From assembly GCA_963708725.1 (NCBI GenBank), contig CAVPTL010000008.1, positions 530,988 through 594,987 of the forward strand: a stretch of 64,000 bases of DNA, given 5' to 3'. The translations under genes were made by a program, and so were the position numbers. Below the pieces are notes generated by a model that was not told the origin of the DNA, ran no database searches, and saw nothing but the letters and a program-made list of their open reading frames with translations. Positions 4,857 through 63,341 of this stretch are shown piece after piece; within the stretch, counting starts at the first letter, position 1; each line of letters opens with the position of its first letter. The stretch is from an uncultured Actinomycetes bacterium. Lineage in GTDB: Bacteria > Actinomycetota > Thermoleophilia > Gaiellales > JAICJC01.

Positions 4857-4866
4857 TGGAGAATGC

Positions 4867-17533: not shown

Positions 17534-17563
17534 GTGCCGTAAATGCGAACAGGAGGGGCGAAA

Positions 17564-18925
17564 ATGGCGACAATCGAAGATACGCGGAACCTCGAGGCGG
17601 TTCGCGCTGAGGTCGTGCGAGAGGTGCGCGAGCGCGAGATCAAGTTCGTGCGGCTGTGGTTTACCGACGTGGTGGGACGGCTCAAGAGCTTTGCGATCAC
17701 GGCGTCAGAACTCGAGGGTGCACTCGAGCGGGGGATGGGGTTCGACGGCTCATCGGTCACGGGCTTCAACGCGATCGAGGAATCCGACATGATCGCGATG
17801 CCGGATCCCACCACCTTCAAGGTGCTGCCGTGGCAGACCGGTGAGAGCAACGTGGCGCGCATGATCTGCGACGTGCGCACACCCGACGGTGAGCCGTACG
17901 AGGCAGACTCGCGGCACGTGCTGCGAACCGCTCTGGAGCGGATGCACTCGCTCGGCTTCGACTCGTTCAAGGTCGGCCCGGAACTCGAGTACTTCTACTT
18001 CAAGATCGACGAGCAGGGCCGCCCGCACGCGCTCGACTCCGGCGGCTACTTCGAAGAGACGACGGTGGATGCCTCGGCGGACCTGCGCAAGGAGACCGTG
18101 CTGGCGCTCGAGGGGATGGGGATTCCGGTCGAGTATCTCCACCATGAGGTCGGCCCGTCACAGCACGAGATCGACGTGCGCTACGCCGAGGGTCTCGACA
18201 TGGCCGATCACTGCATCACGTACCGAAATGTCGTGAAAGAGGTCGCCAAGAAGCACGGTATCCATGCGACCTTTATGCCGAAGCCGCTTTTCGGCGTCAA
18301 CGGCTCGGGGATGCACACCCATCAGTCGCTCTTCATCGGCGACTCCAACGCGTTCTATGACCCGGACGACCCGTGGTTTTTGTCCGATGTGGCCAAGAGC
18401 TTCATCGCGGGCCAGCTGCGTCACGCGCGCGAGATCTCGATGCTGTTCGCGCAGTGGGTCAACAGCTACAAGCGGCTGGTGCCGGGGTATGAGGCGCCGG
18501 TGTACGTCGCGTGGTCGCGGCGCAACCGATCCGCGCTGATTCGGGTGCCGCTGTATCACCCTGGCATGGAGAAGGCGACGCGGGCAGAGATTCGCTGCCC
18601 CGATCCGTCGTGCAACCCGTATCTGGCCTTCGCCGGTCTGCTGCACGCCGGGCTGGAGGGGATCGAGAAGGGCTATGAGCTGCCCGATCCGATGGAGAGC
18701 AACCTCTATGACCTGACCGCCCCCGAGCGCGCGAGCCTCGGGATCGACTCGCTGCCCGAGTCGCTGGGTGAGGCGATCGAGGCGGCGGCGAGCTCGGAGC
18801 TCGTTGAGAAGGCACTCGGAAGCGAGCTGCGCGATCGGCTGGTGACGCTCAAGCGCGAGGAGTGGGACGAGTACCGGGTGCAGGTAACGCCGTGGGAGTT
18901 GGAGCGATACCTCCCCACGCTGTAA
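17564..18925 (+). CDS. glnA: glutamine synthetase, type I
   Basis: GS-I motifs (FDGSSVTGF, NGSGMHTHQSLF, VPGYEAPVY…SRRNRSALIRVP). AGGAGG lies 7 nt upstream of ATG 17564. Confidence 0.95.
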   Translation: MATIEDTRNLEAVRAEVVREVREREIKFVRLWFTDVVGRLKSFAITASELEGALERGMGFDGSSVTGFNAIEESDMIAMPDPTTFKVLPWQTGESNVARMICDVRTPDGEPYEADSRHVLRTALERMHSLGFDSFKVGPELEYFYFKIDEQGRPHALDSGGYFEETTVDASADLRKETVLALEGMGIPVEYLHHEVGPSQHEIDVRYAEGLDMADHCITYRNVVKEVAKKHGIHATFMPKPLFGVNGSGMHTHQSLFIGDSNAFYDPDDPWFLSDVAKSFIAGQLRHAREISMLFAQWVNSYKRLVPGYEAPVYVAWSRRNRSALIRVPLYHPGMEKATRAEIRCPDPSCNPYLAFAGLLHAGLEGIEKGYELPDPMESNLYDLTAPERASLGIDSLPESLGEAIEAAASSELVEKALGSELRDRLVTLKREEWDEYRVQVTPWELERYLPTL

Positions 18926-18933
18926 GAGATCGG

Positions 18934-18957
18934 CGACAATCCCCGGATGGATTGTCG
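18934..18957 (+). other. 9-bp hairpin in the glnA-pdtaS spacer
   Basis: CGACAATCC[CCGGAT]GGATTGTCG, with no U-tract after it. Confidence 0.4.
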
Positions 18958-18975
18958 ACTGACCAGGAGTTGCCC

Positions 18976-20469
18976 GTGAGCGCGGTCGCCGAGCGCGACC
19001 GCGCCGCGCGGCACCTCCAGCTTCTGACCGAAACGATCGCGGCGGTCAACTCGACGCTGGACCTGGCCGGCGTGTTCACCCAGATCGCGTCCAAGGTTGC
19101 GCAGGCGATGAACACCGATGCCTGTTACGTGTACCTGTACGACGAGCCCAGCGGCATGCTGGAGCTGCGAGCCACCCACGGTGCCCGCTTCGACGACCCG
19201 GCCCACCGACCGCGGATGGCCCCGGGTGAGGGCATCACGGGTGTGGCGGCGGCATCGCTGCGTCCGGTGACGATCGCGCGGGCGGCGCATCTCGATCCAC
19301 GGTTCCTGTCGTTTCCGAACCTGCCCGAAGACGAGTACGAGTCGATCCTGGCGGTGCCGGTACTGGCTCGCGACAAGCTTGCCGGCGCGCTGAATGTGCG
19401 TACCCGTGAGCCGCGGGTGTTCGGCGCCGACGAGATCGCGTTGCTGTCGGCGATTGCCGGCCAGGTCGGCCAGGCAATCGAGAACGCGAAGCTGTACGAG
19501 CGCTCCCAGCAGCGGGTGGTCGAGCTGGAGGCTCTGGCCGACATCGGTCGCACGATGTCGGGTTCGCTCTACCTGGATGAGGCGCTGGCCGGAATCGCCA
19601 CCCGCGCGATGCGCGCGCTCGGCGCCGACGGCTGCGCGGTCGTGCTCGAAAGCGATGAGGGGATCTCGGTGGGCTTCCGCGAGGGCGTCACCCGATCGGA
19701 CGCCGACCTGATCGCGATGGCGGGGGCCGCCGAGCCCGAGGGCGAGACGTTTCTCGTGCGCCGCTTGCAGTGGAAGCAGCGCGACAACGGGGCGCTGGTG
19801 GTGCTGTCGGAGACTCCGCGCTCGTGGTCGCCCGAGGAACGCTCGTTGCTCACGACGATCGCCCACGCCGCAAGCGCCGCGGTCGCAAACGCCCAGGCGG
19901 CGCTGCGCGGCCTGCTGGCTCAGGAGATTCACCATCGGGTCAAGAACAACCTTCAGACGGTCGCCTCGCTGCTCCGTCTCCAGGCCGGCGCGACCGACGA
20001 CGAGCACGCGTCCAAGGCGCTCGAGGAGAGTGTCAACCGCATTCTTTCGATCGCGGCGGTCCATGATCTTCTGACCGAGTCCCGAGCCGACGATGTCGAC
20101 TGCGCGGGCCTGATCGGCACGCTCGAGGCGATGCTGGGGCAGGGCCTTGGCGGCCGCAGCTTGGACTCTCAGCTCGACTCGGTGAAGCTTTCCGGGGCGC
20201 GCGCCACCGCGCTTGCCCTGGTGTTCTGTGAGCTCTTCCAAAATGCGGTCGAGCACGGTGGCGGCGCTATCCAGGTCGGGTTGAGGCGAACCGGCGAGAC
20301 GATCGAGCTGACGGTCTCGGACGAGGGCAGCGGGCCGTCGTCCGACAGCCAGCCGGGGCTGGGGCTTCGGATCGCGCAGGCGCTTGTCACCGGCGAGCTC
20401 GGCGGGACGTTGGAGCTGGCCACCGCGGGGAGTGGGAAGGCGGTGGTGAGATTTCCGGCCGCGTCTTGA
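18976..20469 (+). CDS. pdtaS: GAF-domain sensor histidine kinase, HisKA_2 type (PdtaS-like)
   Basis: The H-box EIHHRVKNNLQTVASLLRLQ and a C-terminal HATPase region (ELFQNAVEHG…DEGSG…GLGLRI). Start placed at GTG 18976 after CCAGGAG. The track ORF start at 18862 overlaps glnA. Confidence 0.85.
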   Translation: MSAVAERDRAARHLQLLTETIAAVNSTLDLAGVFTQIASKVAQAMNTDACYVYLYDEPSGMLELRATHGARFDDPAHRPRMAPGEGITGVAAASLRPVTIARAAHLDPRFLSFPNLPEDEYESILAVPVLARDKLAGALNVRTREPRVFGADEIALLSAIAGQVGQAIENAKLYERSQQRVVELEALADIGRTMSGSLYLDEALAGIATRAMRALGADGCAVVLESDEGISVGFREGVTRSDADLIAMAGAAEPEGETFLVRRLQWKQRDNGALVVLSETPRSWSPEERSLLTTIAHAASAAVANAQAALRGLLAQEIHHRVKNNLQTVASLLRLQAGATDDEHASKALEESVNRILSIAAVHDLLTESRADDVDCAGLIGTLEAMLGQGLGGRSLDSQLDSVKLSGARATALALVFCELFQNAVEHGGGAIQVGLRRTGETIELTVSDEGSGPSSDSQPGLGLRIAQALVTGELGGTLELATAGSGKAVVRFPAAS

Positions 20470-21020
20470 TCGCCGAGGACGAGACGATCATCCGGCTCGA
20501 TCTGGCCGCGATGCTGCAACGCGCCGGCTTCGAGGTGGTGGCTGAGGCCAGCGACGGTCTCGAGGCGGTCGACCTGGCGGCGTCATCGGCGCCGGATATC
20601 GCGCTGCTCGACGTCAAGATGCCTGGTCTCGACGGCATCGACGTGGCCCGCAAGATCCTGGAGCAGCGTCCGATACCGGTGGTGATCGTGACCGCCTTTT
20701 CGGAGCGCGAGGTGGTGGAGCGCGCGATCGAGGCCGGGGTGTTCGGGTACCTGGTCAAGCCATTTCGCGAGGGTGATCTGTTACCGGCGATCGAGACCGC
20801 CCGGGCTCGTCACGCCGAGCTCGAGGAGCTGCGGGCCGAGTCGGACGACCTTCGCGACGCTCTGGCTGCGCGCAAGGCGATCGAGCGGGCCAAGGGACTG
20901 CTGATGGCTCGCGATGACCTCACCGAGTCAGAAGCATTTGGCCGCATGCGTCGCGCATCTCAGCAAACCGGCCGCTCGATGCGCGAGATCGCCGAGGCCA
21001 TCGTCGCAACCCTTGAATAA
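20466..21020 (+). CDS. pdtaR: response regulator with ANTAR RNA-binding output domain (PdtaR-like)
   Basis: REC domain (IAEDETIIRLDL…LDVKMPGLDG…YLVKP) plus an ANTAR helix pattern (AARKAIERAKGLLMARDDLTESEAFGRMRRASQQTGRSMREIAEAIV). The TTG start overlaps the pdtaS stop. Confidence 0.9.
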   Translation: MIAEDETIIRLDLAAMLQRAGFEVVAEASDGLEAVDLAASSAPDIALLDVKMPGLDGIDVARKILEQRPIPVVIVTAFSEREVVERAIEAGVFGYLVKPFREGDLLPAIETARARHAELEELRAESDDLRDALAARKAIERAKGLLMARDDLTESEAFGRMRRASQQTGRSMREIAEAIVATLE

Positions 21021-52621: not shown

Positions 52622-53416
52622 GTGACGGCCTTTCCGATCCGTGTGGGTGTTCAGCTCGAGCCCCAGCATGTGACCTACCCGCAGATGCGCGACGCCTGGC
52701 TGCGGGTCGAGGCGATGGGCGCCGACGTTCTCTACAACTGGGATCATTTCTACCCGCTCGAGGGCGATCCCGACGGGCTTCACTTCGAATGCTGGACGGC
52801 GCTCGCGTCGATGGCCGAGGTCACCGACCAGATCCGATTCGGGGCGCTCGTGACCTGCAACTCCTACCGCAACCCGCAACTCCTCGCCGACATGGCGCGC
52901 ACCGTCGATCACATCTCGGGCGGCCGCCTGATCCTGGGCCTGGGCTCGGGCTGGTTCGAGCGCGACTACGACGAATACGGCTACGACTTCCTGACGACCG
53001 GCGGCCGATTGCGCGATCTCGATGCGGCCATCCCGCTGATGCTCGAGCGATTCTCGAAGCTCAACCCACCCCCGGTGCAGGAGCGGATTCCGATCCTGAT
53101 CGGCGGCGGCGGTGAAAAGCTCACCCTCCGGATCGTGGCCGAGCGCGCCGACATCTGGAACTACTTCGGCGAGCCGGAGGAGCTCCGGCACAAATCGGCG
53201 GTGCTGGATGAGTGGTGCGACCGGGTGGGCCGTGATCCGAGCGAGATTGAGCGCTCGGTCACCGACTTGCAGACCGCCACGGAGGACGACCTGGACGCCT
53301 ACCTCGCTCTCGGTGTCACCCAGATGATCTTGCCGATGACCGGCCCCGACTTCGACTACCCCGCGCTCGAGCGGCTGCTCGGGTGGCGCGATTCTCGACG
53401 GGCGTCGCGTGACTGA
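52622..53416 (+). CDS. LLM-class (luciferase-like) F420-dependent oxidoreductase, paralog 1
   Basis: …FECWTALASMAEVTDQIRFGALVTCNSYRNPQLLADMARTVDHISGGRLILGLGSGW…. GTG start at 52622. Confidence 0.8.
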   Translation: MTAFPIRVGVQLEPQHVTYPQMRDAWLRVEAMGADVLYNWDHFYPLEGDPDGLHFECWTALASMAEVTDQIRFGALVTCNSYRNPQLLADMARTVDHISGGRLILGLGSGWFERDYDEYGYDFLTTGGRLRDLDAAIPLMLERFSKLNPPPVQERIPILIGGGGEKLTLRIVAERADIWNYFGEPEELRHKSAVLDEWCDRVGRDPSEIERSVTDLQTATEDDLDAYLALGVTQMILPMTGPDFDYPALERLLGWRDSRRASRD

Positions 53417-54194
53417 CTTTCCAATCCGCGTCGGAGTCCAGGTTCAGCCGCAGCAGGGCACCCTGGCGAACATCCGGGAGACGTGGCGGCGGATCGATGA
53501 TTCCGGCGCTGACACGCTTTTTACCTGGGATCATTTCCATCCGCTGTACGGCGATCCCGACGGCGCCCACTTCGAGTGCTGGACGATGCTTGCCGGGATG
53601 GCCGAGGTGACCCACCGGGTGCGCTTCGGCGCGCTCGTGAGCTGTAACTCCTACCGCAACCCCGAACTGCTTGCCGACATGGCGCGGACGGTGGACCACA
53701 TGTCCGATGGCCGCCTCATCTTTGGGATCGGTTCCGGATGGTTCCAGCGCGATTACGACGAGTTTGGGTACGAGTTCGGCACCGCGCCCAGCCGTCTCCG
53801 CGACCTCGATGCCGCGTTGCCGCGGATCGAGCAGCGCTGGGCGAAGTCCAATCCGCTGCCCGTGCAGGATCCCATCCCGATCCTGATCGGGGGTGGGGGC
53901 GAGAAGGTCACACTTCGGATCGTGGCCCAGTACGCCCAGATGTGGAACGGTTTCGGTGATCCGGATCGTGCCCGTCACAAGAACGCCGTGATCGACGCCC
54001 ACTGTGCCAAGCTGGGGCGCGACCCCAGTCAGATCGAACGCTCGATCGCCGGGATCAAGGATGTCGACATCGACACGCTCGATGCCTATGTCGATGCCGG
54101 CATCACCCACTTCATCTTCGCCACCGGCGGACCCGCCTGGGATCTCAGCCCGTTACAGAAGCTGGTTGACTGGCGCGATTCACGGTCGGCCTGA
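53409..54194 (+). CDS. LLM-class F420-dependent oxidoreductase, paralog 2 (tandem duplicate)
   Basis: Collinear with paralog 1 over the full length (…FECWTMLAGMAEVTHRVRFGALVSCNSYRNPELLADMARTVDHMSDGRLIFGIGSGW…). The GTG start overlaps paralog 1 by 8 nt. Confidence 0.8.
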   Translation: MTDFPIRVGVQVQPQQGTLANIRETWRRIDDSGADTLFTWDHFHPLYGDPDGAHFECWTMLAGMAEVTHRVRFGALVSCNSYRNPELLADMARTVDHMSDGRLIFGIGSGWFQRDYDEFGYEFGTAPSRLRDLDAALPRIEQRWAKSNPLPVQDPIPILIGGGGEKVTLRIVAQYAQMWNGFGDPDRARHKNAVIDAHCAKLGRDPSQIERSIAGIKDVDIDTLDAYVDAGITHFIFATGGPAWDLSPLQKLVDWRDSRSA

Positions 54195-55140
54195 TCGGGA
54201 TCTTCACAGGAATCAGGTGCAGAGCGGCGATCGTGCCCCACAGCACCACCAGCCCCACGAACTGCCAGAAGTCAATCGTGGCGCCAAGGTAGAAGTAGTT
54301 CACGACCAGCGCGGTCGCGGGGAACGCCAGCTCCGCGAACGTCGCCACCGGTGCAGGGGTCGTTCTCAGTCCGCGGTAGTACAGGAGCAGTGCGATCAGA
54401 CCTGGGAACAGCGCGAGCAGCAGCAGGCGCACCCAGTCGCCGTTGCTCTGACCGGTCGGGGTGAACTCGCTTCCGCCGCGCACCAGCACGAGGAACGCCA
54501 GGAACGGCAGAGCCAGTACGAACCGCATGCTCGTGACCATGTTGGAGTCGATCTGGCGCAGCGCCCGCCGGCCGAACGCGGTGGCCGAGCCCCAGAGCGC
54601 GGCCGCGATCAGCGCCAGAAGTGCGGCCTTGCCATCATTCGAGTACACATCGGTGGGAGACTGCCAGCCGAACGACAGCAGGTACGTTCCGATCGCGGCG
54701 GGAATGAACACCAGGAGAATCAGCGGCCTCGGCACCTCTTTGACCACGATCGCCGCAGCTCCGATCGCCCACAGCGGCTGGGTCTTTTGCAACAGCACCA
54801 CCACGTTGGGGTTGCCGTATTCGAACGCGGTCGTGAAGGCCAGCGTGGCGAGTGCCGAGCCGCCCCAGGCGATCGCGATCAGCGACAGCCAGCCCATCCG
54901 GTCGAGCTGGGACAGCTGCGATCGGTGGCGGATCACGAAGTAGGCGACACACGCCACCAGGATCACATGCTCGTACAGCACGATCGTCCACGGCGACCAG
55001 GTGTCGACCAGCGGTTGACGCAGCGCGCCATCGGTGCCCCACAGCGCGGCGCCCGCGGCAACCAGCGCGACTCCGGCGATCGGCGCATACCGAATTGCGA
55101 AGCGCGAGGTCAACGAGGTCTTGGAGGTGTGTGCCGTCAT
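54145..55140 (-). CDS. EamA/DMT-family transporter
   Basis: Ten hydrophobic segments with a duplicated EamA pattern. Start at ATG 55140 (MTAHTSK). The 3' end overlaps the LLM paralog by 50 nt. Confidence 0.75.
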   Translation of the reverse strand: MTAHTSKTSLTSRFAIRYAPIAGVALVAAGAALWGTDGALRQPLVDTWSPWTIVLYEHVILVACVAYFVIRHRSQLSQLDRMGWLSLIAIAWGGSALATLAFTTAFEYGNPNVVVLLQKTQPLWAIGAAAIVVKEVPRPLILLVFIPAAIGTYLLSFGWQSPTDVYSNDGKAALLALIAAALWGSATAFGRRALRQIDSNMVTSMRFVLALPFLAFLVLVRGGSEFTPTGQSNGDWVRLLLLALFPGLIALLLYYRGLRTTPAPVATFAELAFPATALVVNYFYLGATIDFWQFVGLVVLWGTIAALHLIPVKIPIRPTVNRASQPASVTG

Positions 55141-55169
55141 AGAGCGTTCGGGCGGCATGATACGCATCC

Positions 55170-56114
55170 ATGTCCACTCGGCCAATCACAGTTCTCTCGG
55201 GCGGCGTCGGCGCCGCCCGGTTCCTCCAGGGTGTGATCGATGTGGTGCCGGCAACCGACGTCACCGCGATCGGGAACGTCGGCGACGATCTCGAGATCTA
55301 CGGGCTGCACGTCTCGCCGGATCTCGACACCGTGCTCTACACGCTCACCGGCTGGATCGACGAGCAAAAGGGCTGGGGCGTGCGAGGCGACAGCTCCCGC
55401 GCGCTCGATCGCGCCCGGGATCTCGGCGCGCCCGCATGGTTTTGGCTGGGCGATCTCGACATCGGTCTGCACCTGGCGCGCACCGAGCGGTTGCGCCTGG
55501 GTGAGCCGCTGAGCGCGATCACCGCGGTTCTGTGCGAGGCCCTCGGCCTGGGCGTCCAACTCCTGCCGAGCACCGATGATCGGCTGCGCACGATGGTGAT
55601 GACACCGGCGGGGGAGCTCGACTTCCAGACGTACTACGTCGGCCGCCAGCACCGAGACACGGTCACCGGTCTGCGCTATGACGGCGCCGATGCCGCGCGC
55701 CCCGCAGCGGGAGTGATCGATGCTCTCGGCGGTGCGCGAGCGATCGTGATCGCTCCGTCCAATCCCCTGATCTCGATCGAGCCGATCCTCGCCGTCCCCG
55801 GCGTGCGTGAGGCACTTGGCGCCCGCACAGCGCCGTGCGTCGCGGTCAGCCCGATCGTCGCAGGGGCGGCCCTGCGCGGCCCTGCCGCCGACATGCTGCG
55901 CTCGCTCGGGCACGAGGTCTCGCCAGTCGGCGTCGCCCGCCACTACGGCGAGCTGATCGACGCGATCGTGATCGATACCAGCGATGCAGATCTGGCACCG
56001 GCGATCGAGGCCCTGGGCGTTCGGGCAATCGTGACCGACACGGTCATGCGCGATCCCCAGGTGCGCGCGGCGCTCGCCCGATCGGCGCTTGCCGCCGCCG
56101 GAATCGAGGCCTAG
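55170..56114 (+). CDS. cofD: 2-phospho-L-lactate transferase (F420 biosynthesis, CofD/FbiA)
   Basis: [16 protein letters not shown]…GNVGDD…[13 protein letters not shown]…WFWLGD…APSNPLISI… are hallmark CofD motifs. Confidence 0.9.
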
Positions 56115-56845
56115 TGGCGCTTGGAATCATGCCGCTTCGGCTCGAGGGCGAGATCGCCGCCGGCGCCGACCTGGCCGCGTTGATCCTGGCCGCGGCACCG
56201 CCGCTCGAGGCCGGTGACGTGATCGTGATCGCACACAAGGCTGTGGCGAAGTCCGAAGGGCGGGTGGTGGATCTGACCACAGTGACCCCCTCGCCCCGGG
56301 CGATCGAGCTGGCCGGCGATGACGGTGATCCCCGCCAGGTGGAGCTTGTCTTGCGTGAGAGCAGACGGATCGTGCGGCGCCGCGGATCGCTCTTGATCGT
56401 CGAGACCCATCATGGATTTATCTGCGCGAGTGCCGGAATCGACCGCTCGAACGCGCCGGGGGCCGACACTGCGGTGCTGCTGCCGGTCGACCCCGACGCG
56501 TCCGCCAGGGCGCTGCGGCTGGCGCTGCGCGAGCAGCTCGACGGCGACCTGGCGGTGATCGTGGCCGACACCATGGGGCGCCCGCTGCGAAACGGAATCG
56601 TGGGCACTGCGATCGGCTCGAGTGGCATCGTGCCGCTGCTCGGCCTGCAGGGAAACATCGACCCGAATGGCTACGAGCTTCGCACCACACAGGTTGCGAT
56701 TGCCGACGAGCTGGCTGCCGCCGCCGACCTGGTGATGGGAAAGCTCGAGCGGGCGCCCGCCGCGCTCATCCGCGGCTATGCGGCTGAGGGTGACGGCTCA
56801 GCGCGCGAGCTGATCCGAGAATCGGAGCGCGACCTCTTCATCTAG
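56114..56845 (+). CDS. cofE: F420-0:gamma-glutamyl ligase (CofE), single-domain form
   Basis: …[19 protein letters not shown]…[15 protein letters not shown]…[11 protein letters not shown]…[12 protein letters not shown]…. GTG 56114 overlaps the cofD TAG (TAGTG). An alternative ATG lies at 56129. No nitroreductase-like C-terminal domain. Confidence 0.85.
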
Positions 56846-57430
56846 GAGACCCGCGCGGCGGGCATCGGCGGGCGTGTCGACATCCAGCGCCAGCCCGGGC
56901 AAGTCGACCAGCACCGCGTCGAGTCCCGCGGCAGCGGCGCGGCGCAGATGCAGCTGAGCGCTTTGGGGCGCCCCGAAGTTGGGCTGAAGGACGGTGGCGG
57001 GCGCGACCCATAGGGCGTTGGTGCCGTTGTCGTGAGCCCGGGCAGCCACCACGCCGCGGGGCGGTGCGGCGTCGCGCAGGGCGCGCAGCTCGGCGGCGGT
57101 CACGAGCGGTAGGTCACCGGCGAGATACAGCACCGCATCAGGCGGCGGCTCCACCGCGGCCAGTGCATGCAGGAGGCCCTCGTTCCACGGCAGGTCGCCG
57201 TCGTCCAAAAAGTCGATTCCCAACTCGGAGGCGAGCGCCGGCGCGCCGGGATCGGAGCTGACGAGCGCCACCTGTCCGATCTCTGCCTCGCGCGCCGCTG
57301 CGGCCACCCGCGAGAGCATGACGCGCATCAGCGCCCGGCGAGCGTCGCCGTCGAGCTCCGGCGCGAGCCTGCTCTTGGCCGCATCGAGATGCTTCATGCC
57401 GATCAGAACCGCGGTGGTCATGGTCGGCAT
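56798..57430 (-). CDS. cofC: phospholactate/phosphoenolpyruvate guanylyltransferase (CofC/FbiD)
   Basis: …AVLIGMKHLDAAKSRLAP… , …LYLAGDLPLV… , …HDNGTNAL… , …DVDTPADA…. The 3' end overlaps cofE by 48 nt (convergent). Confidence 0.8.
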   Translation of the reverse strand: MPTMTTAVLIGMKHLDAAKSRLAPELDGDARRALMRVMLSRVAAAAREAEIGQVALVSSDPGAPALASELGIDFLDDGDLPWNEGLLHALAAVEPPPDAVLYLAGDLPLVTAAELRALRDAAPPRGVVAARAHDNGTNALWVAPATVLQPNFGAPQSAQLHLRRAAAAGLDAVLVDLPGLALDVDTPADARRAGLLDEEVALRFSDQLAR

Positions 57431-57459
57431 GGTAGAGGTCGGCGGCTACAGTTTTTGGC

Positions 57460-58461
57460 GTGATCACCCTCGGTTACAAGGCCTCTGCCGAGCAGTTTGC
57501 TCCGGTCGAGCTGCTGCGGTTTGCACTCGCCGCCGAGCGCAACGGGTTTGACTCGGTCGCGATCTCGGATCATTTTCAGCCGTTTCGGCACACCGGCGGT
57601 CACGCCCCGGCGGCCCTGCCGTGGTTGGGTGCGCTCGCTGTTCAGAGCGAGCGGATCAGGATCGGCACCAGCGTCTCGACCCCGACGATGCGATTTCATC
57701 CCTCGATGGTTGCGCAGGCGTTCGCCACGCTTGGATGTTTCGCGCCGGGGCGGATGTTTCTGGGGGTTGGCACCGGCGAGTCGATGAACGAGGTGCCGCC
57801 GCTGGGGATCGAATGGCCGGGATTCAGCGAACGGCTGGGTCGCCTGAAGGAGGCGATCGAGCTGATTCGGCTGCTCTGGACCGAGGACCGCGTGAGCTTT
57901 GAGGGCGAGTACTACACGACCCGGCGGGCCACGGTGTATGACCGCCCCGAGACGCCGCTTCCGATCCTGATCGCCGCTGCCGGTCCTCGCGCGGCGCGGT
58001 TCGTGGGGCGAACCGGCGACGGTTTCATCACCACCAGTGGCAAGCCACCCGAGCTCTACTCCGAGACGTTGCTGCCGGCCGTGGCCGAGGGAGCGATCAA
58101 GGCCGGTCGCGATCCTGAGTCGCTGGAGAAGCTGCTCGAGGTCAAGGTCTCGTACGATCCCGATCACGCCCGGGCGGTTGCCGAATGCGCGTTCTGGGCA
58201 CCGCTGGCCTTGCCGGCCGAGGCCAAGCAAGGTGTGCATGACCCGCTCGAGCTCGAGCGGCTGGCAGATAGTCCCGACGTTCACGCCGAGAGCCGCTTCA
58301 TCGTGTCGGGCGATCCGCAGGAGCAGGTCGAACGCATCGGTGCCTACGTCGATCTCGGCTTTCGCCACCTCATCTTCCACAGCCCAGCGCCTGATCAGGA
58401 GCGGTTTCTCGAGATGTTCGGCAGCCAGGTGCTGCCGCTCCTGCGCGCCCGCTACAGCTGA
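57460..58461 (+). CDS. fgd: F420-dependent glucose-6-phosphate dehydrogenase
   Basis: Collinear with mycobacterial FGD1 as I remember it (LGYKASAEQFAP…SDHFQP(F/W)RH.GGHAP…GVGTGE(S/A)(M/L)NE…FWAPL(A/S)L…). GTG start. Confidence 0.85.
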   Translation: MITLGYKASAEQFAPVELLRFALAAERNGFDSVAISDHFQPFRHTGGHAPAALPWLGALAVQSERIRIGTSVSTPTMRFHPSMVAQAFATLGCFAPGRMFLGVGTGESMNEVPPLGIEWPGFSERLGRLKEAIELIRLLWTEDRVSFEGEYYTTRRATVYDRPETPLPILIAAAGPRAARFVGRTGDGFITTSGKPPELYSETLLPAVAEGAIKAGRDPESLEKLLEVKVSYDPDHARAVAECAFWAPLALPAEAKQGVHDPLELERLADSPDVHAESRFIVSGDPQEQVERIGAYVDLGFRHLIFHSPAPDQERFLEMFGSQVLPLLRARYS

Positions 58462-58859
58462 CCGCGGGCGGCGGGTCCCAGCACTCGCTGGGGTGCCAGA
58501 TACCACTTCACGCGCTGCTCGCCCGGCTCGAGGTCGCGAAACCGCTCGCCCGTGTACTTGATCGCGATCTCGTGCGAGTGGGCGTCGCCGGCCTCGGGGT
58601 CGCGGTGCTCGGCCACACACCGGATCTCAGCGTAGTACTCGTCATCCTCATCGGAGGTGATCTCGACCGTGCAGCGCGGCTCGCGCTGGAGGTTTCGATC
58701 CTTCACCCTGCCGATCGCCGTGTTGAACACCACCAACCCGTCCTCGACGTCGATCCAAAGCGGCGTCACCTGCACCGATCCGTCGCGGTTGATTGTCGCC
58801 AGATGAGCCAGCAACGGCGCCTCGAGCAGCGCGATCGCACCGGCGGGCAACTCGATCAT
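58452..58859 (-). CDS. PPOX-class probable F420-dependent enzyme
   Basis: …LLAHLATINRDGSVQVTPLWIDVEDGLVVFNTAIGRVKDRNLQREPRCTV… split-barrel pattern. ATGA overlap with the upstream LLM gene. Confidence 0.7.
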   Translation of the reverse strand: MIELPAGAIALLEAPLLAHLATINRDGSVQVTPLWIDVEDGLVVFNTAIGRVKDRNLQREPRCTVEITSDEDDEYYAEIRCVAEHRDPEAGDAHSHEIAIKYTGERFRDLEPGEQRVKWYLAPQRVLGPAARGQL

Positions 58860-59809
58860 GCGGCCACAACCTCGGGCACCAGCTCGTTTCCGATCAGCTC
58901 GACCATCTCGATGTCAGTGTGGCACAGATGCTGGAGCATCACCCGCTCGACCCCGACCTCGGCGAGGGCATGGAGCTTCTCCACCACCTCCGGCACGGTG
59001 CCGCCGATCCAGTCGTCGCGGTTTTCGCGCAAAAGGGCGGCGCCGCTGTCGCCCAGGCCCAGGGCGGCCAGGTCGTCCAGCCGGCGGCTGAGTTCATGGA
59101 CGTCGGCGCCGACCACCGCGGTCGTCATCACCGACATTGCCAGCGTGGCCGGGTCGCGGCCGGCGGCCTCGCAGGCCCGGTCAAGGCGTTCGCGCAGGGC
59201 GCGGCACTCCTCGACGTCGCCGGTGACGGCGTTGTATTCCTGGGCAAACCGCACGGCAATGGCCACACTTCGGGGCTTGCCGGCGCCGCCGACGATCACC
59301 GGCGGATGGGGGCTCTGGAGTGGCCGCGGCAACGAAGGGCACCGATCCAGGGTGTAGTGGTCGCCAGCGAACGAGAACTCGTCCTCAGTCCACTGACGGG
59401 TGATGATCTCGAGCTGCTCTTCGAGCATCTGCATCCGGGCCTTCAGCGGCGGAAACGGAAACCCGAAGGCCTCGTGCTCCAGCTCGTACCAGCCCGCTCC
59501 AAGCCCGAGCTCCACCCGCCCGCCGGAGATGTGGTCGACCGTTGTTGCACTTTTGCCGAGTACGGACGGGTGCCGGAACGTCGCGGGTGACACCATCGTT
59601 CCCAGCCTGATTCGCGAGGTGTGCGCGGCGATCCCCGCCAGAGTGGTCCACGCGTCCAGCGACCCACGCCCGACCCGGCCGTCACCGGACAGGTAGTGAT
59701 CCGAGCGAAACAGCCCGTCGAGGCCGGTGCGCTCGGTGGCCTCGGCCAGCGCCAGCCATTGATCCCAGGTGACATCCTCCTGGCCCTCCACCATCAGGCA
59801 CAGTCGCAT
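58856..59809 (-). CDS. LLM-class F420-dependent oxidoreductase
   Basis: MRLCLMVEGQEDVTWDQW…FRSDHY…LGTMVSPATFRHPSVLGKSATTVDHISGGRVELGLGAGW…. Confidence 0.8.
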   Translation of the reverse strand: MRLCLMVEGQEDVTWDQWLALAEATERTGLDGLFRSDHYLSGDGRVGRGSLDAWTTLAGIAAHTSRIRLGTMVSPATFRHPSVLGKSATTVDHISGGRVELGLGAGWYELEHEAFGFPFPPLKARMQMLEEQLEIITRQWTEDEFSFAGDHYTLDRCPSLPRPLQSPHPPVIVGGAGKPRSVAIAVRFAQEYNAVTGDVEECRALRERLDRACEAAGRDPATLAMSVMTTAVVGADVHELSRRLDDLAALGLGDSGAALLRENRDDWIGGTVPEVVEKLHALAEVGVERVMLQHLCHTDIEMVELIGNELVPEVVAA

Positions 59810-59817
59810 TGCTGGGG

Positions 59818-60246
59818 TCAGGCCCCCAGGTGCGCGGATCGGATAGCGTCGATCAGCTCGTCGAGGCCCACGCCTTTCTTAAGGCAGTTGGACGCCCCGG
59901 CGGCGAGCGCGGCCTCGATCATCTGAGGCTCGTCGTAGGCCGACAACACCACCACCGGCATCGCCCACTCCGCGTGCGCAATGTTCTCGGTGGCCTCGAT
60001 CCCGTCCACGTTGGGCATGCGCATGTCCATGACCACGACGTTGGGGCGCTTTGTTTCGGCCAGCGTCATCGCTTCAGCACCATCGCCGGCCTCACCCACG
60101 ACATGCATTCCGGCCTCCTCGAGTGCATCACGCAGAACACCCCGGAGCAGGGCGTTGTCTTCGGCAATGACGATCGTAATATCGTTATCCACGGGGCTGC
60201 GAGGTTCTGGATCCCCGCGAACCATACCGGGGTTCTGCGCGGTCAT
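59818..60246 (-). CDS. single-domain response regulator (receiver only)
   Basis: …IVIAEDNALLRGVL…VVVMDMRMPNVDG…VVVLSAY…CLKKG… REC motifs. No output domain. Confidence 0.85.
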   Translation of the reverse strand: MTAQNPGMVRGDPEPRSPVDNDITIVIAEDNALLRGVLRDALEEAGMHVVGEAGDGAEAMTLAETKRPNVVVMDMRMPNVDGIEATENIAHAEWAMPVVVLSAYDEPQMIEAALAAGASNCLKKGVGLDELIDAIRSAHLGA

Positions 60247-60252
60247 GTGACC

Positions 60253-61047
60253 TCAGCTCGCCGATGCGTACAGGTCGTCGACGGCCGCGGCGGCGGAGCG
60301 GGCGGCGGCACCTGGTGCCGAGCCGCGTGACCGCTCGAGCACGTACACGGCCAGCCACGAATCGCCCGCCCCGGTGGGATCGTCGAAGCTCTCGCCGTTG
60401 GAGCCGCTGCGCTCCACACCCTCGGCGGTGACCACCATCGCTCCGTCTCGGCCGAGTGTGATCGCCACCTCGGGCACGTTGAGCCGTGCCAGCCGCTCGG
60501 GCTCGACTCCCCCGCACACGGCCATCGCCTCGGCCCGGCTCAGCTTGAGCATCGCCGCTCCCGCAACGGCCTCGGCGGGGAATGGCCGCAGTCGCAGCGG
60601 CCCTGGGTCTGGCCCGCGGGCGAGTCCCTGAGCATCGATGCAGACGAGCAGCCCCGCCTCGGACAACACCGCGATCATGTCCGGCGGGAAGTCGGTCGAG
60701 GCCTGCCCGCCCAGAATCACCCATTCGCAACCCCCGAGCAGTGGCAGCATTTCGCGAGCTTCGGCCGCCGTGAACGGTTCTCCGACCGCGGCCAGCTGTT
60801 GATCGGTGGCTTCCGGCGAGTGGACGAGCACCGACTCGAAGGTGGACCGCGATGGCAGCACAACGGCGTCGGGAAGCTCGGCGCCCTTGGTGATCACCAC
60901 CGGTTCCACACCCACCGCCCGCAGCGCGCGGGCCGCGTACAGGGGCGTCCCGCCCAGCCGGCGTTGGGTGGCTTCGGCCGGTGTCGATACGACGTCCCAC
61001 CCGGTATGGCCGATCACGGCGACGCTCACCCGGTCATTATCCGCCAT
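60253..61047 (-). CDS. PfkB-family (ribokinase-like) small-molecule kinase, substrate unknown
   Basis: 264 aa. N-terminal …VAVIGHTGWDVV… and C-terminal DPTGAGD signature. ATG at 61047 (MADNDRVSV). Confidence 0.75.
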   Translation of the reverse strand: MADNDRVSVAVIGHTGWDVVSTPAEATQRRLGGTPLYAARALRAVGVEPVVITKGAELPDAVVLPSRSTFESVLVHSPEATDQQLAAVGEPFTAAEAREMLPLLGGCEWVILGGQASTDFPPDMIAVLSEAGLLVCIDAQGLARGPDPGPLRLRPFPAEAVAGAAMLKLSRAEAMAVCGGVEPERLARLNVPEVAITLGRDGAMVVTAEGVERSGSNGESFDDPTGAGDSWLAVYVLERSRGSAPGAAARSAAAAVDDLYASAS

Positions 61048-61279
61048 CGTCCGCCGGCCCGACGGGTTGGCGCAGGCGCGATACCTGATCGCGCAGCTGG
61101 TCGGCGGCGTCGTCGGCGGTGGATGCGATCCGGTCGAGTGCTCGCTTGGCGGTCTCGGCGTCGCCGGCGTCGAGTGCCGTGAGCGCAGCATCGGTCAGCA
61201 GCCTGATCGCTGTCACCGATTGCTGCGGCCCGTCGTGCAACCAGGCCGCGAGTCGTTCGCGCTCAGTCGATGAGGGCAT
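61037..61279 (-). CDS. stand-alone HisKA_3-type DHp (dimerisation/His-phosphotransfer) protein, 80 aa, no ATPase domain
   Basis: MPSSTERERLAAWLHDGPQQSVTAIRLLTDAALTALDAGDAETAKRALDRIASTADDAADQLRDQVSRLRQPVGPADDGG. Contains the NarX/DesK-type H-box (ER.RLA..LHD….Q). About 80% of codons end in G or C. It overlaps the regulator gene by 17 nt and the PfkB gene by 11 nt. In the track it is hidden inside the 181-aa ORF 61037..61582. Confidence 0.55.
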   Translation of the reverse strand: MPSSTERERLAAWLHDGPQQSVTAIRLLTDAALTALDAGDAETAKRALDRIASTADDAADQLRDQVSRLRQPVGPADDGG

Positions 61280-61922
61280 AGCGCAGCGCCAGTGCGACGG
61301 CTTGGGTGCGCGTGTCGGCTTCGAGCTTCGCCATCGCGTTTCGCACATGGGTGCGAACGGTCTCGGGGCTGATGAAGAGCTTCGCGGCGATCTCGGGGTT
61401 GGAGTTGCCGTCGGCCAGCAGGCCGAGGATTTCGCGCTCGCGACCCGACAGCGCCGGCAGCCGCTCGGTGGCCTTCGGGCTGACGAGTTCGGACGCCAGG
61501 GTCGGATCGACGTATGCCCCGCCTTCGGCCACGCGCTTGACCGCTCGCACGATGTCGTCGGGTGGCGCGTCCTTGAGCACATACCCGCGTGCGCCGCAGT
61601 CGAGGCCCTCCGCCAGTAGACCCCGCTCGCTGTGGGCGGTGTAGAGGATGACGGCCATGTCGGGGTGGTTGGCCGTTATCTGGCGGGTGGCCGCGAACCC
61701 GTCCATGCCCTCCATCCGCACGTCCATGACCACCACGTCGGGGCGGCGGCGACCGGCCATCTCGACCGCTCCGCGACCGCTGCTACTCTCGCCGATCACG
61801 GTAATCTCGCGGTCTCGGGCGAGAATCATCTTGACGCCTTCGCGCACGGCAGCGTGATCATCGACGACGATGCAGCGCACTTGCGTGAGTTCAGAACCGG
61901 AAGATCCGTGTGTGGCAGCCAC
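61263..61922 (-). CDS. NarL/LuxR-family response regulator
   Basis: REC domain (…CIVVDDHAAVREG…VVVMDVRMEGMDG…) plus a LuxR helix-turn-helix (LSGREREILGLLADGNSNPEIAAKLFISPETVRTHVRNAMAKL). Confidence 0.9.
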   Translation of the reverse strand: MAATHGSSGSELTQVRCIVVDDHAAVREGVKMILARDREITVIGESSSGRGAVEMAGRRRPDVVVMDVRMEGMDGFAATRQITANHPDMAVILYTAHSERGLLAEGLDCGARGYVLKDAPPDDIVRAVKRVAEGGAYVDPTLASELVSPKATERLPALSGREREILGLLADGNSNPEIAAKLFISPETVRTHVRNAMAKLEADTRTQAVALALRYALID

Positions 61923-61981
61923 GGGGCACCGTCCGAAATGTTTCCATCGTTTGTAGGAGCCGAACGTTACTTGGGAGAACT

Positions 61982-61987
61982 TACAAT
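61982..61987 (+). promoter_or_regulatory. candidate -10 element for a leaderless CDF transcript
   Basis: TACAAT lies 7 nt upstream of ATG 61995, with no Shine-Dalgarno in between (ACCCCGC). No convincing -35. Confidence 0.4.
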
Positions 61988-61994
61988 ACCCCGC

Positions 61995-63341
61995 ATGTCA
62001 ACCGCACGCCGAACCGCGTTGGCGTCTCTGGGCGGCGCGCTGGCTCTGGCGCTGGCGAAGCTCGCGGTCGGCCTTGCCACCGGGAGCCTCGGAATTCTGG
62101 CTGAGGCGGCCCATTCGGGCATGGATGCTGTTGCCGCCCTGTTGACCGTGTACGCGGTTGGGGTCGCCGAGCGGCCGGCCGATAGCGACCATCCCTACGG
62201 TCACGGCAAGGCTCAGCATCTGTCCGCGCTGGCCGAGGCGGCGATCCTGGCGGCGGTCGCGGTGTGGATCGCGGTCGAGGCGACCACGCGCCTCATCAAC
62301 GGCAGCACGGCGGTGTCGGCCACCTGGTACGCGTTCGTGTTGATGGTGATCGTGCTGGTCGTCGATGCCGGACGGTCAACGGCGTCCCTGCGGGTCGGCC
62401 GGGCCGAACACAACGCGGCGCTCCTGGCCAACGCCGCGCATTTTGCGTCGGACTTCGTCGGCAGCCTCGCGGTGCTGGTCGGCCTCATCCTGGTGTCGTT
62501 CGGAGTGCAGGGCGGCGACTCGGTGGCCGCCATCTTCGTGTCGGTGATCGTGCTTGCCGGTGCCGCCCGGCTGGCCTGGATCAACGTCGATGTGCTGATG
62601 GATCGTGCTCCGACCGGTACCGCTTGGCGGGTCGAGCGGGCCGCGCTTTCGGTGCCGGGAGTGACCGCCGTACGCTCGGTGCGTGTGCGCGAGGCCGGTG
62701 GTGAGAACTTTGCCGAAGTGGTGATCGGCGTGTCGCGACTGGCCGGGCTCGAGCGTTCGCACGACACGATGGATCTGGTGGAGCAGGCGGTGATCGAGGA
62801 GCTCGGCCGCGCGCAGGTGGTGGTGCACGCCGAACCCGACGCCGTGGGCGAGCGCGCCAACGATCGCATCGCCGCGGCCGCGCTGCGCGTCCCGGGTGTG
62901 GTCGAGACGCACAACATCACTGTCCTGGCTCAGCCCGACGGGCTCGCGGTCACGCTGCACGTGCGGCTCCCTGAGGACACTCCACTGTCGGAGGCCGGTG
63001 CCGTGGTGATGCGGTTGAAGCAGGAGATCCGGCGCGAGATCGGGGTCGCCCGCGTCTTCGCCCATGTGGAGCCATCCCTCCCGGACGCCCAACCCGCCCA
63101 GGAGGTCACGAGCGTCGAGCCCGCCGTGCTGCGGATCGCCGCTGACGCGGTGCGCTCGGTGGCGGGCGACGGCGCCGAGGTGGTCGTCTATCGCCAGGCC
63201 GAGCGCTTGCTGGTCGTGACCTCGGTGCACGGTCAGCCGACCATGACCGTTCGCGACTCACACGAACTCGCAAGCCGCATCGAAGACGTCGTCCGCGAAC
63301 GGCTCGACCACGTCGACGACGTGATCGTCGAGGTCATCTAG
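61995..63341 (+). CDS. cation diffusion facilitator (CDF) metal efflux protein with three tandem cytoplasmic C-terminal domains
   Basis: Six TM helices with HSGMD (TM2) and HFASD (TM5) metal-site motifs, then three ~75-aa repeats of the …PGV…V…V…G….V…HV…EP type. 448 aa. ATG inside the longer track ORF. Confidence 0.85.
   Translation: MSTARRTALASLGGALALALAKLAVGLATGSLGILAEAAHSGMDAVAALLTVYAVGVAERPADSDHPYGHGKAQHLSALAEAAILAAVAVWIAVEATTRLINGSTAVSATWYAFVLMVIVLVVDAGRSTASLRVGRAEHNAALLANAAHFASDFVGSLAVLVGLILVSFGVQGGDSVAAIFVSVIVLAGAARLAWINVDVLMDRAPTGTAWRVERAALSVPGVTAVRSVRVREAGGENFAEVVIGVSRLAGLERSHDTMDLVEQAVIEELGRAQVVVHAEPDAVGERANDRIAAAALRVPGVVETHNITVLAQPDGLAVTLHVRLPEDTPLSEAGAVVMRLKQEIRREIGVARVFAHVEPSLPDAQPAQEVTSVEPAVLRIAADAVRSVAGDGAEVVVYRQAERLLVVTSVHGQPTMTVRDSHELASRIEDVVRERLDHVDDVIVEVI

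Follow-up and report, generated by a model that had tools for sequence, protein, structure and literature searches.

Here we describe a four-gene signaling module on a 64 kb window of DNA (the whole stretch analyzed; 64,000 nucleotides, positions 530,988 to 594,987 of contig CAVPTL010000008.1, assembly GCA_963708725.1) from an uncultured soil actinobacterium. The conserved unit is four genes, encoding a NarL-type response regulator, a HisKA_3 protein, a PfkB-like kinase, and a receiver-only protein. In the window, which holds a derived, ATPase-less form of the module, the HisKA_3 protein is a stand-alone DHp (dimerization and histidine phosphotransfer) protein of 80 residues, and in our judgment the chances are evenly balanced that this protein serves as a hub between the two receivers and is coupled to a cyclitol-type kinase.

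An earlier reading of the bare sequence (the original prediction) had described six closely packed genes at this site, and the list of open reading frames (ORFs), Pfam, and NCBIfam confirmed their coordinates and domains, with all six ORFs present on the minus strand. The first gene of the module encodes a NarL/FixJ-type response regulator (61263..61922; Response_reg, 94.5 bits; GerE, 70.6 bits), which has the N-terminal receiver and the C-terminal GerE/LuxR helix-turn-helix that this class demands in Pfam and, as read from the sequence, a complete phosphorylation pocket (DD, D, T, and K). It reached no NCBIfam equivalog cut-off, the best match being MadR at 171 versus 300 bits. The regulator gene overlaps by 17 nt the gene for the stand-alone DHp protein (61037..61279; HisKA_3, 49.2 bits against a cut-off of 24 bits), which in turn overlaps by 11 nt the gene for a PfkB/ribokinase-fold kinase of 264 aa belonging to the myo-inositol-kinase-like subgroup (60253..61047), whose Pfam score was weak (PfkB, 31.5 bits against a cut-off of 25.8 bits). 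After a gap of 6 nt follows the gene for a single-domain receiver protein (59818..60246; Response_reg, 101.6 bits), the pocket of which also reads as complete (acidic pair, phospho-Asp, Ser/Thr, and Lys). The gene for a cation diffusion facilitator (CDF) transporter diverges from the module on the plus strand (61995..63341; Cation_efflux, 137.5 bits; ZT_dimer, 109.2 bits). The part list drawn up in the original prediction, consisting of a receiver-only protein, a histidine-bearing DHp without an ATPase, and a DNA-binding regulator, proved real in Pfam, as did the absence of an ATP-dependent sensor kinase, with no HATPase_c domain encoded in the six-gene operon. No sign of a detached ATPase gene emerged, the ATPase domains of related kinases matching nothing elsewhere in the 64 kb window in tblastn.

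The 80-aa protein matched positions 1-66 of the 68 in the HisKA_3 profile and nothing else substantial; at E <= 0.01, the Pfam scan returned only HisKA_3 and a sub-threshold NIT match and did not place the protein in the Spo0B or ChpT families. Its ORF, which reads MPSSTERERLAAWLHDGPQQ... and carries His15 and D16-x-x-x-Q20, begins at an ATG within the final codons of the regulator gene, overlapping the regulator stop, and ends at a TAA within the opening codons of the PfkB gene. When the DHp served as query against proteins, just seven clusters were recovered (56-80 aa, 68-98% identity), each HisKA_3-only, and a stand-alone DHp was present at the same position in L001-L005 and L018, which form the window clade. 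The orthologues (69-80 aa) were 56-98% identical, with both helices kept and all length differences in frame. The LHDGPQQ motif was invariant in all loci, and the His, Asp, and Gln of HDxxxQ were unchanged in every sequence, including the ATPase-less and pseudo-ATPase forms. Comparison of the window with L001 and L005 gave a ratio of nonsynonymous to synonymous substitution rates (dN/dS) of 0.33-0.37 for the DHp, alongside 0.23-0.32 for PfkB, 0.20-0.26 for the LLM-class oxidoreductase gene downstream, 0.06-0.10 for the regulator, and about 0.08 for the receiver-only protein. Between the window and L001, the DHp ORF showed 20, 13, and 37 differences at codon positions 1, 2, and 3. Because dN/dS is close to 0.35 and both the His and DxxxQ are constant, the ORF appears to encode a selected protein. 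The original prediction had named an untranslated remnant as one outcome that would refute its reading, and such a remnant is unlikely in view of the purifying selection and the recurrence of the ORF in relatives. The DHp/PfkB junction differs among the three stand-alone lineages, with overlaps of 11 nt and 4 nt in two forms and a gap of 7 nt in the third, the two ORFs being separate in each. An additional stand-alone DHp was seen in P0171 (69 aa), and an in-frame DHp-PfkB junction from a window-like lineage was seen in P0178 (234 aa), which is frameshifted further on and may be an assembly error. A search of representative sequences with the DHp gave 98 weak matches, many of them probably fragments, and is no measure of the frequency of stand-alone HisKA_3 DHp proteins.

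The four-gene unit adjoins a divergent CDF gene in about 70 loci from soil metagenomes that are Gaiellales-like. The order of regulator, HisKA_3 protein, PfkB, and receiver beside a CDF gene was found in L001-L011, L018, L099/L100, and those of the L019-L092 loci with long enough contigs, and wherever the flank sufficed, the CDF gene lay upstream in divergent orientation. A metagenome scan with the receiver alignment yielded 80 loci, and in 74 of these the receiver was 70-90% identical to that of the window. PfkB was directly upstream of the receiver wherever the contig was long enough, save for five loci with a PhzF-like insertion; in these (L048, L049, L051, L054 [4144-4974, minus strand], and L055), which make up one degenerate-ATPase lineage, a PhzF-family gene on the opposite strand separates PfkB from the receiver. 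A search with the PfkB protein reached remoter relatives than the DHp search and revealed PfkB-receiver fusions of about 396 aa; the remoter relatives have the same core beside the divergent CDF transporter, with a HisKA_3 protein of 215-280 aa coming after the NarL regulator and before PfkB and the receiver. Across the related loci, identity to the window was 83-95% for the regulator, mostly 79-90% for the receiver, 41-75% for PfkB, and 42-68% for the kinase or DHp, so that the receiver-only protein is far better conserved than its PfkB and kinase neighbors. Source annotations assigned the relatives to metagenome-assembled genomes (MAGs) of Gaiellales and Thermoleophilia; the relatives are metagenome contigs or MAGs throughout, with frameshifts in some long-read assemblies (L002-L004, L011). 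A scan of genome contigs with the PfkB alignment gave at least two useful loci (L010, L011) among the matches listed, which included generic PfkB patterns. The arrangement proposed in the original prediction was thus conserved as a four-gene unit beside the CDF gene, but the LLM- and PPOX-class oxidoreductase genes come after it in the window clade only. In L069 (2805-5366) and L073, regulator and HisKA_3 genes are both missing, and PfkB and the receiver come immediately after the CDF gene.

The proteins at the kinase position were aligned, their N-box Asn, G1 Asp, and G2 GxG were read, and the state of the ATPase domain was assigned from these motifs together with Pfam. The forms found at the DHp position were an intact small kinase, a protein with a degenerate ATPase domain, a DHp-PfkB fusion without an ATPase domain, and the stand-alone DHp (72-80 aa). 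All three ATPase motifs were present in 21 loci, the kinases of which mostly carry one or two hydrophobic N-terminal segments, and all three were lost in 19 loci, where H, D, G, S, A, or E replaces the N-box Asn and G1 and G2 are unrecognizable. Consistent with these assignments, Pfam found HATPase_c in 3/3 intact and 0/5 degenerate examples tested. The domain is absent altogether from the window clade and from a lineage comprising L063, L070, L071, L099, and L100. In the window clade, the N-terminus of the DHp (MPSSTE/D) and its start codon over the regulator stop match those of the full-length kinases; because these features are common to both, the DHp originated by two in-frame deletions, one taking away the membrane and linker part and the other the ATPase domain, so that just the two DHp helices were left. 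The remaining DHp is still translationally coupled to both neighboring genes. The HisKA_3 scaffold named in the original prediction is borne out by the profile score (49.2 bits), but the protein is a kinase that was truncated at both ends and not an independent invention. In a neighbor-joining tree of PfkB (200 bootstraps), a split with 99% support had the intact forms and the window clade on one side and the degenerate and fused forms on the other. Stand-alone and fused proteins each made up a monophyletic clade (100%), and the two clades were never placed together in the 200 replicates; the ATPase domain was therefore lost at least twice, independently. Two apparent histidine kinase-PfkB fusions, L011 (5161-6720) and P0028, in which the kinase C-terminus is in frame with PfkB, were not counted; the frames are continuous, but the N-box region of L011 is frameshifted, and both may be assembly errors.

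The AlphaFold2 (AF2) model of the window PfkB had a predicted local distance difference test (pLDDT) score of 95.1. The nearest structures in Foldseek were TM0415 and the myo-inositol 3-kinase (MI3K) of Thermococcus kodakarensis, with TM-scores of up to 0.83 (5ysq and 1vk4: E = 4e-18; TM-score, 0.83), and the best sequence match in the PDB was 3w4s (E = 7.6e-7 with the single sequence; 1.7e-12 with the family profile). In MI3K, residues D12, G26, Q136, R140, and D219 contact all six inositol hydroxyls (PMC5931981). The residues of the window PfkB that align to these contacts in HMMER against 3w4s (D18, G33, Q140, R144, and D229) were invariant in the 38-sequence family alignment, as were G32, G33, and G226-A227-G228-D229, leaving the GG and GAGD motifs of the ribokinase fold intact. 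The window PfkB has Pro and Ala in place of the two Arg residues that are specific for pyrophosphate (PPi) in TM0415 and precede the catalytic Asp by 5 and 2 positions; because this marker pair is replaced, ATP would be a likelier phosphoryl donor than PPi. The protein looks like an active small-molecule kinase with a predicted cyclitol-like substrate.

Gene fusions connect this enzyme with both of its signaling neighbors. DHp-PfkB fusions, in which PfkB directly follows HisKA_3, formed six clusters (P0071-P0076; 316-323 aa). One of them, P0074, was found on 15 contigs of independent assemblies, including the NCBI MAG GCA_035695105.1, and is placed between the regulator and the receiver, beside the CDF gene; in its AF2 model, residues 8-44 and 48-76 form a helical hairpin, which a short linker of lower confidence joins to the PfkB domain. 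Eight clusters (P0020, P0023, P0027-P0030, P0037, and P0137) were PfkB-receiver fusions with the receiver at the C-terminus of PfkB. Together with the PfkB-receiver pair of L069 and L073, the two kinds of fusion argue that the DHp, PfkB, and the receiver may work in contact, and the data also argue for PfkB plus receiver as the putative most basic unit. The original prediction had matched the receiver-only protein to Spo0F. Because it is fused to PfkB in eight clusters and the pair persists in L069 and L073, where regulator and kinase are missing, the receiver-only protein seems to be primarily a partner of the PfkB-like kinase and not simply a Spo0F-type shuttle. At the beta5 aromatic 'switch' site, the receiver-only protein has an invariant Cys (C121; 7/7 aligned sequences), where the NarL regulator has Tyr. 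Classification of the receiver-only protein by a FATGUY-type motif (PMC9981736) was dropped, as its LSAYDE is typical of NarL-family receivers too.

In the mechanism we favor, the 80-residue DHp would most likely dimerize into a four-helix bundle that docks both receivers. Its His15 would act as a reversible phosphotransfer hub between the receiver-only protein and the NarL regulator, and Q20 of the DxxxQ motif would let it dephosphorylate the receivers. The PfkB small-molecule kinase would form a complex with DHp and receiver, in which it would be under the control of the phospho-receiver or would feed metabolite and ATP state into the hub. Phosphoryl groups would enter from outside the operon, the donor being a small molecule or an unlinked kinase. 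The approximately 19 related loci with a pseudo-ATPase domain in the style of Spo0B and ChpT lend credibility to a role in phosphotransfer or dephosphorylation; to this extent, the Spo0B-like relay of the original prediction holds up, although no upstream kinase was found in the window and the relay itself is conjectural. In the DHp-PfkB fusion lineage, L100 (and also L099) encodes a full-length, multi-transmembrane kinase of 424 aa with HisKA_3 and HATPase_c (11948-13222 in L100), 4 kb downstream of the module and after GATase, glutamine-synthetase-like, and aldehyde-dehydrogenase genes. This kinase is a candidate external phosphodonor.

Several points weigh against the hub. Neither the operon nor the rest of the 64 kb window encodes a HisKA_3 kinase with an ATPase domain, and no phosphoryl source was found there. 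Throughout the stand-alone-DHp clade, PfkB has Ser for Asn in its NxxE motif (Ser170, in S-R-A-E); the motif is N-x-x-E in the rest of the PfkB family and D-L-G-E in MI3K. Loss of the ATPase domain would also be expected of a system drifting towards loss of function. The dN/dS of the DHp comes from about 72 codons in three lineages, and the tree that separates the two losses is built from a single protein on metagenome contigs. The coupling between PfkB and the receiver may run in either direction, and the biochemical roles of the module proteins are all deduced from sequence.

We regard it as unlikely, though worth serious weighing, that the DHp is a phosphatase only, with DxxxQ keeping the NarL regulator and/or the receiver-only protein unphosphorylated, no phosphoryl group passing through the His, and the receivers charged by unlinked kinases or acetyl phosphate. 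All forms have an unchanged DxxxQ, and an ATP-independent function fits the recurrent disappearance of the ATPase domain from proteins that keep the DHp. The isolated DHp domain of EnvZ reportedly retains phosphatase activity, and DxxxQ is said to be the phosphatase motif of NarX-type kinases. However, no ATPase-less or pseudo-ATPase sequence has lost the phospho-accepting His either, a residue with which a pure phosphatase could dispense, since several kinases keep phosphatase activity without it. PhyT, originally described as a phosphatase, proved to be a phosphotransferase as well (PMC5898713), and a phosphatase-only DHp would leave the PfkB fusion unexplained. The fusions raise another reading, which we consider distinctly improbable, namely that PfkB has replaced the ATPase domain and phosphorylates the DHp His with ATP, or otherwise supplies the phosphoryl group, as a non-GHKL histidine kinase; in a weaker form, it would be a catalytically active 'trigger enzyme', gating His-Asp phosphotransfer in response to a cyclitol substrate. 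The PfkB domain of the fusions starts approximately 10 residues past the second DHp helix, which is the position of the ATPase domain in ordinary kinases, and the order DHp-PfkB-REC (receiver) resembles a hybrid kinase. The ATPase domain is decayed or gone in about half of the lineages, with the GAGD of PfkB kept everywhere, and the PfkB-REC fusions and the two independent ATPase losses are compatible with either form of this reading. On the other hand, the five inositol-contact residues are invariant even in ATPase-less lineages, which points to a small polyol substrate, and about 21 loci hold an intact ATPase domain beside PfkB. The PfkB and REC pair of L069 and L073 exists without any DHp, and we know of no ribokinase-fold enzyme that phosphorylates a protein histidine.

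A six-gene F420-directed system, in which the phosphorelay controls F420-dependent redox chemistry, stands at a lower probability again. The LLM gene starts 8 nt past the receiver gene in the window clade, no terminator-like site lies between the two, and the arrangement is kept in L001-L005 and L018; but no other locus has LLM or PPOX after the receiver, the genes downstream of the module differ by lineage, and LLM and PPOX border fgd, cofC, cofE, and cofD, which gives them the look of an F420 island's edge. The lowest probability of all goes to a decaying remnant, in which the deletions destroyed the kinase and the 80-codon ORF stays open only for translational coupling of the regulator to PfkB. 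Such a remnant would account for an ORF that overlaps both neighbors, has no evident Shine-Dalgarno sequence upstream, and shows the highest dN/dS of the five operon genes compared (PPOX left out), and chance ORFs are common at 68% G+C. It would not account for a dN/dS of 0.33-0.37 with third-position changes dominant, for an invariant His and DxxxQ, in-frame indels, and two helices kept at 56-98% identity, or for a second lineage that independently kept the same minimal DHp as a fusion.

The functional counterparts of the module are Spo0F-Spo0B-Spo0A, CckA-ChpT-CtrA, and Pak-SdrG-PhyT-PhyR, and its descent places it in the HisKA_3/NarL class. Like Spo0F-Spo0B-Spo0A of Bacillus and CckA-ChpT-CtrA/CpdR of Caulobacter, it would place a dimeric four-helix-bundle histidine phosphotransferase without ATP-dependent autophosphorylation between receivers, and approximately 19 of its relatives bear a pseudo-ATPase domain, as do Spo0B and ChpT (ChpT structure, PMC3433190). 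However, the window DHp matches HisKA_3 and not the Spo0B-type or ChpT-type helices, making it an analogue and not a family member. Unlike Spo0B and ChpT, it is without any C-terminal domain, and unlike in the Spo0F and CpdR relays, the receiver-only protein is tied to an enzyme by gene fusions. The window was found to hold a histidine-bearing DHp without an ATPase and two receivers with intact pockets, as expected of Spo0B/ChpT/PhyT-type relays, whereas the upstream kinase of such relays was found neither within the operon nor within the 64 kb window.

The PhyT and MrrA systems offer a further parallel and are an experimental precedent for kinase-derived phosphotransferases. PhyT of Sphingomonas melonis is a kinase-like phosphotransferase, and also a phosphatase, that acts behind a single-domain receiver (PMC5898713), and in the MrrA system of Caulobacter, the kinase-like proteins PhyK and LovK are phosphotransferases behind a single-domain receiver (PMC5964349). 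These systems share with the window module a kinase-descended protein, a stand-alone receiver, and a terminal regulator, and their phosphoryl input comes from unlinked kinases. PhyT (PhyP) and PhyK/LovK are, however, of the HisKA_2/HWE type, with a (pseudo-)ATPase domain and a membrane anchor, whereas the window protein is of the HisKA_3 type and has two helices only. The terminal regulator is the anti-anti-sigma factor PhyR in the PhyT system and a NarL-type protein in the window. The window module also differs in having a PfkB enzyme and in being known from sequence alone. A shuttling of phosphoryl groups from receiver to receiver via a kinase-like protein is likewise described for the RedCDEF 'four-component' system of Myxococcus xanthus (PMC2755868), which comprises a kinase, a kinase-like protein, and two receivers; there, RedE still has the architecture of a kinase, no metabolic enzyme takes part, and the protein families and lineage are others.

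With NarX/NarL, DesK/DesR, and LiaS/LiaR, the module shares the HisKA_3 DHp with H-D-x-x-x-Q and the regulator composed of REC and GerE, and relatives preserve the ancestral form, a true small kinase of the NarX/DesK/LiaS class with N, G1, and G2 boxes intact. The window protein has the HisKA_3 DHp of this kinase class but lacks its HATPase_c domain, and with no ATPase, sensor, or transmembrane part, it is unable to autophosphorylate in the known way. The window PfkB shares with MI3K of T. kodakarensis (3w4s/4xf7) and the PPi-dependent TM0415 (5ysp) the compact ribokinase fold of about 265-285 residues (PMC5931981) and the catalytic Asp of GAGD, at an identity of about 20%; MI3K and TM0415 are not linked to two-component proteins, whereas the window PfkB is. 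Our literature searches brought up no module of this kind with a stand-alone HisKA_3 DHp, no fusion of PfkB to DHp or receiver domains, and no link of PfkB to two-component proteins.

Spo0B, ChpT, and PhyT are thought to have descended from histidine kinases, and intermediates are rarely seen together. Here, one orthologous locus shows the whole series, from intact kinase through pseudo-ATPase protein and bare DHp to DHp-enzyme fusion, with the ATPase-less end state reached twice. Gene fusion ties two-component signaling to a ribokinase-fold, inositol-kinase-like enzyme, a combination for which no description was found. The module opens the question of what selects for loss of the ATPase domain, and its four small soluble proteins make the capabilities of a minimal 80-residue DHp testable. 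It may also show whether a metabolic kinase serves as the sensor, output, or phosphodonor of a phosphorelay.

Downstream of the module, the receiver gene is followed after 8 nt by the gene for an F420-dependent LLM-class oxidoreductase (58856..59809, minus strand; TIGR03560, 275.8 bits against a cut-off of 231.4 bits), which overlaps by 4 nt that for an F420-dependent PPOX-class oxidoreductase (58452..58859, minus strand; TIGR03618, 91.1 bits against 79.05 bits), both scores exceeding the curated NCBIfam cut-offs. Apart from the window, only L018 and L001-L005 have these two genes after the receiver; in all other loci they were absent there. They adjoin an F420 island (55170..58461) that consists of cofD (55170-56114, plus strand; TIGR01819, 305.8 bits), cofE (56111-56845, plus strand; TIGR01916, 247.5 bits), cofC (56798-57430, minus strand; TIGR03552, 133.6 bits), and an fgd-like gene (57460-58461, plus strand; TIGR03554, 419.6 bits against a cut-off of 420 bits). 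LLM and PPOX thus appear to be co-oriented passengers from the F420 island, outside the conserved system. In the window clade, they are probably co-transcribed with the module, because the gap is 8 nt and no terminator-like site lies between the genes. The link from signaling to F420-type redox enzymes drawn in the original prediction did not extend beyond the window clade, where it borders the island. Elsewhere, the genes downstream of the module vary, with GGDEF in L006 and GATase, glutamine-synthetase-like, and aldehyde-dehydrogenase genes in various orders in L007, L009, and L099. The PPOX gene is tandemly duplicated in L001 (10387-11186). Upstream of the F420 island in the window are two more LLM-class paralogues (about 52637-53317 and 53424-54104), and an EamA transporter gene (54145-55185, minus strand) lies near it.

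The divergent intergenic region between the regulator and CDF genes spans 72 bp (61923..61994) and contains TACAAT at 61982-61987, 7 nt before the CDF ATG. A consensus sigma-70 scan of this region found nothing. In a 20-locus alignment, the conserved block GTTGACAT...ATTGTA corresponded to the CDF start codon and the -10-like hexamer. With TACAAT so close to the ATG and the block kept in 20 loci, the alignment suggests a leaderless CDF transcript. Most loci carry GTTTCC(A/T)(A/T)TCG in this intergenic region, in inverted orientation in the window clade; the sequence is a possible binding site of the regulator. A promoter/terminator scan found no promoter, and its three terminator-like matches were at chance level, so that the scan speaks neither for nor against the operon structure.

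The only other kinase in the 64 kb window is a GAF-HisKA_2/HWE histidine kinase of 535 aa, followed by a REC-ANTAR regulator of 184 aa (18862-21020, plus strand), in a PdtaS/PdtaR-like architecture. It was rejected as the missing kinase (18862-20469), as it belongs to another DHp family and has its own ANTAR regulator. A glutamine synthetase gene (17543-18925) is located just upstream of it.

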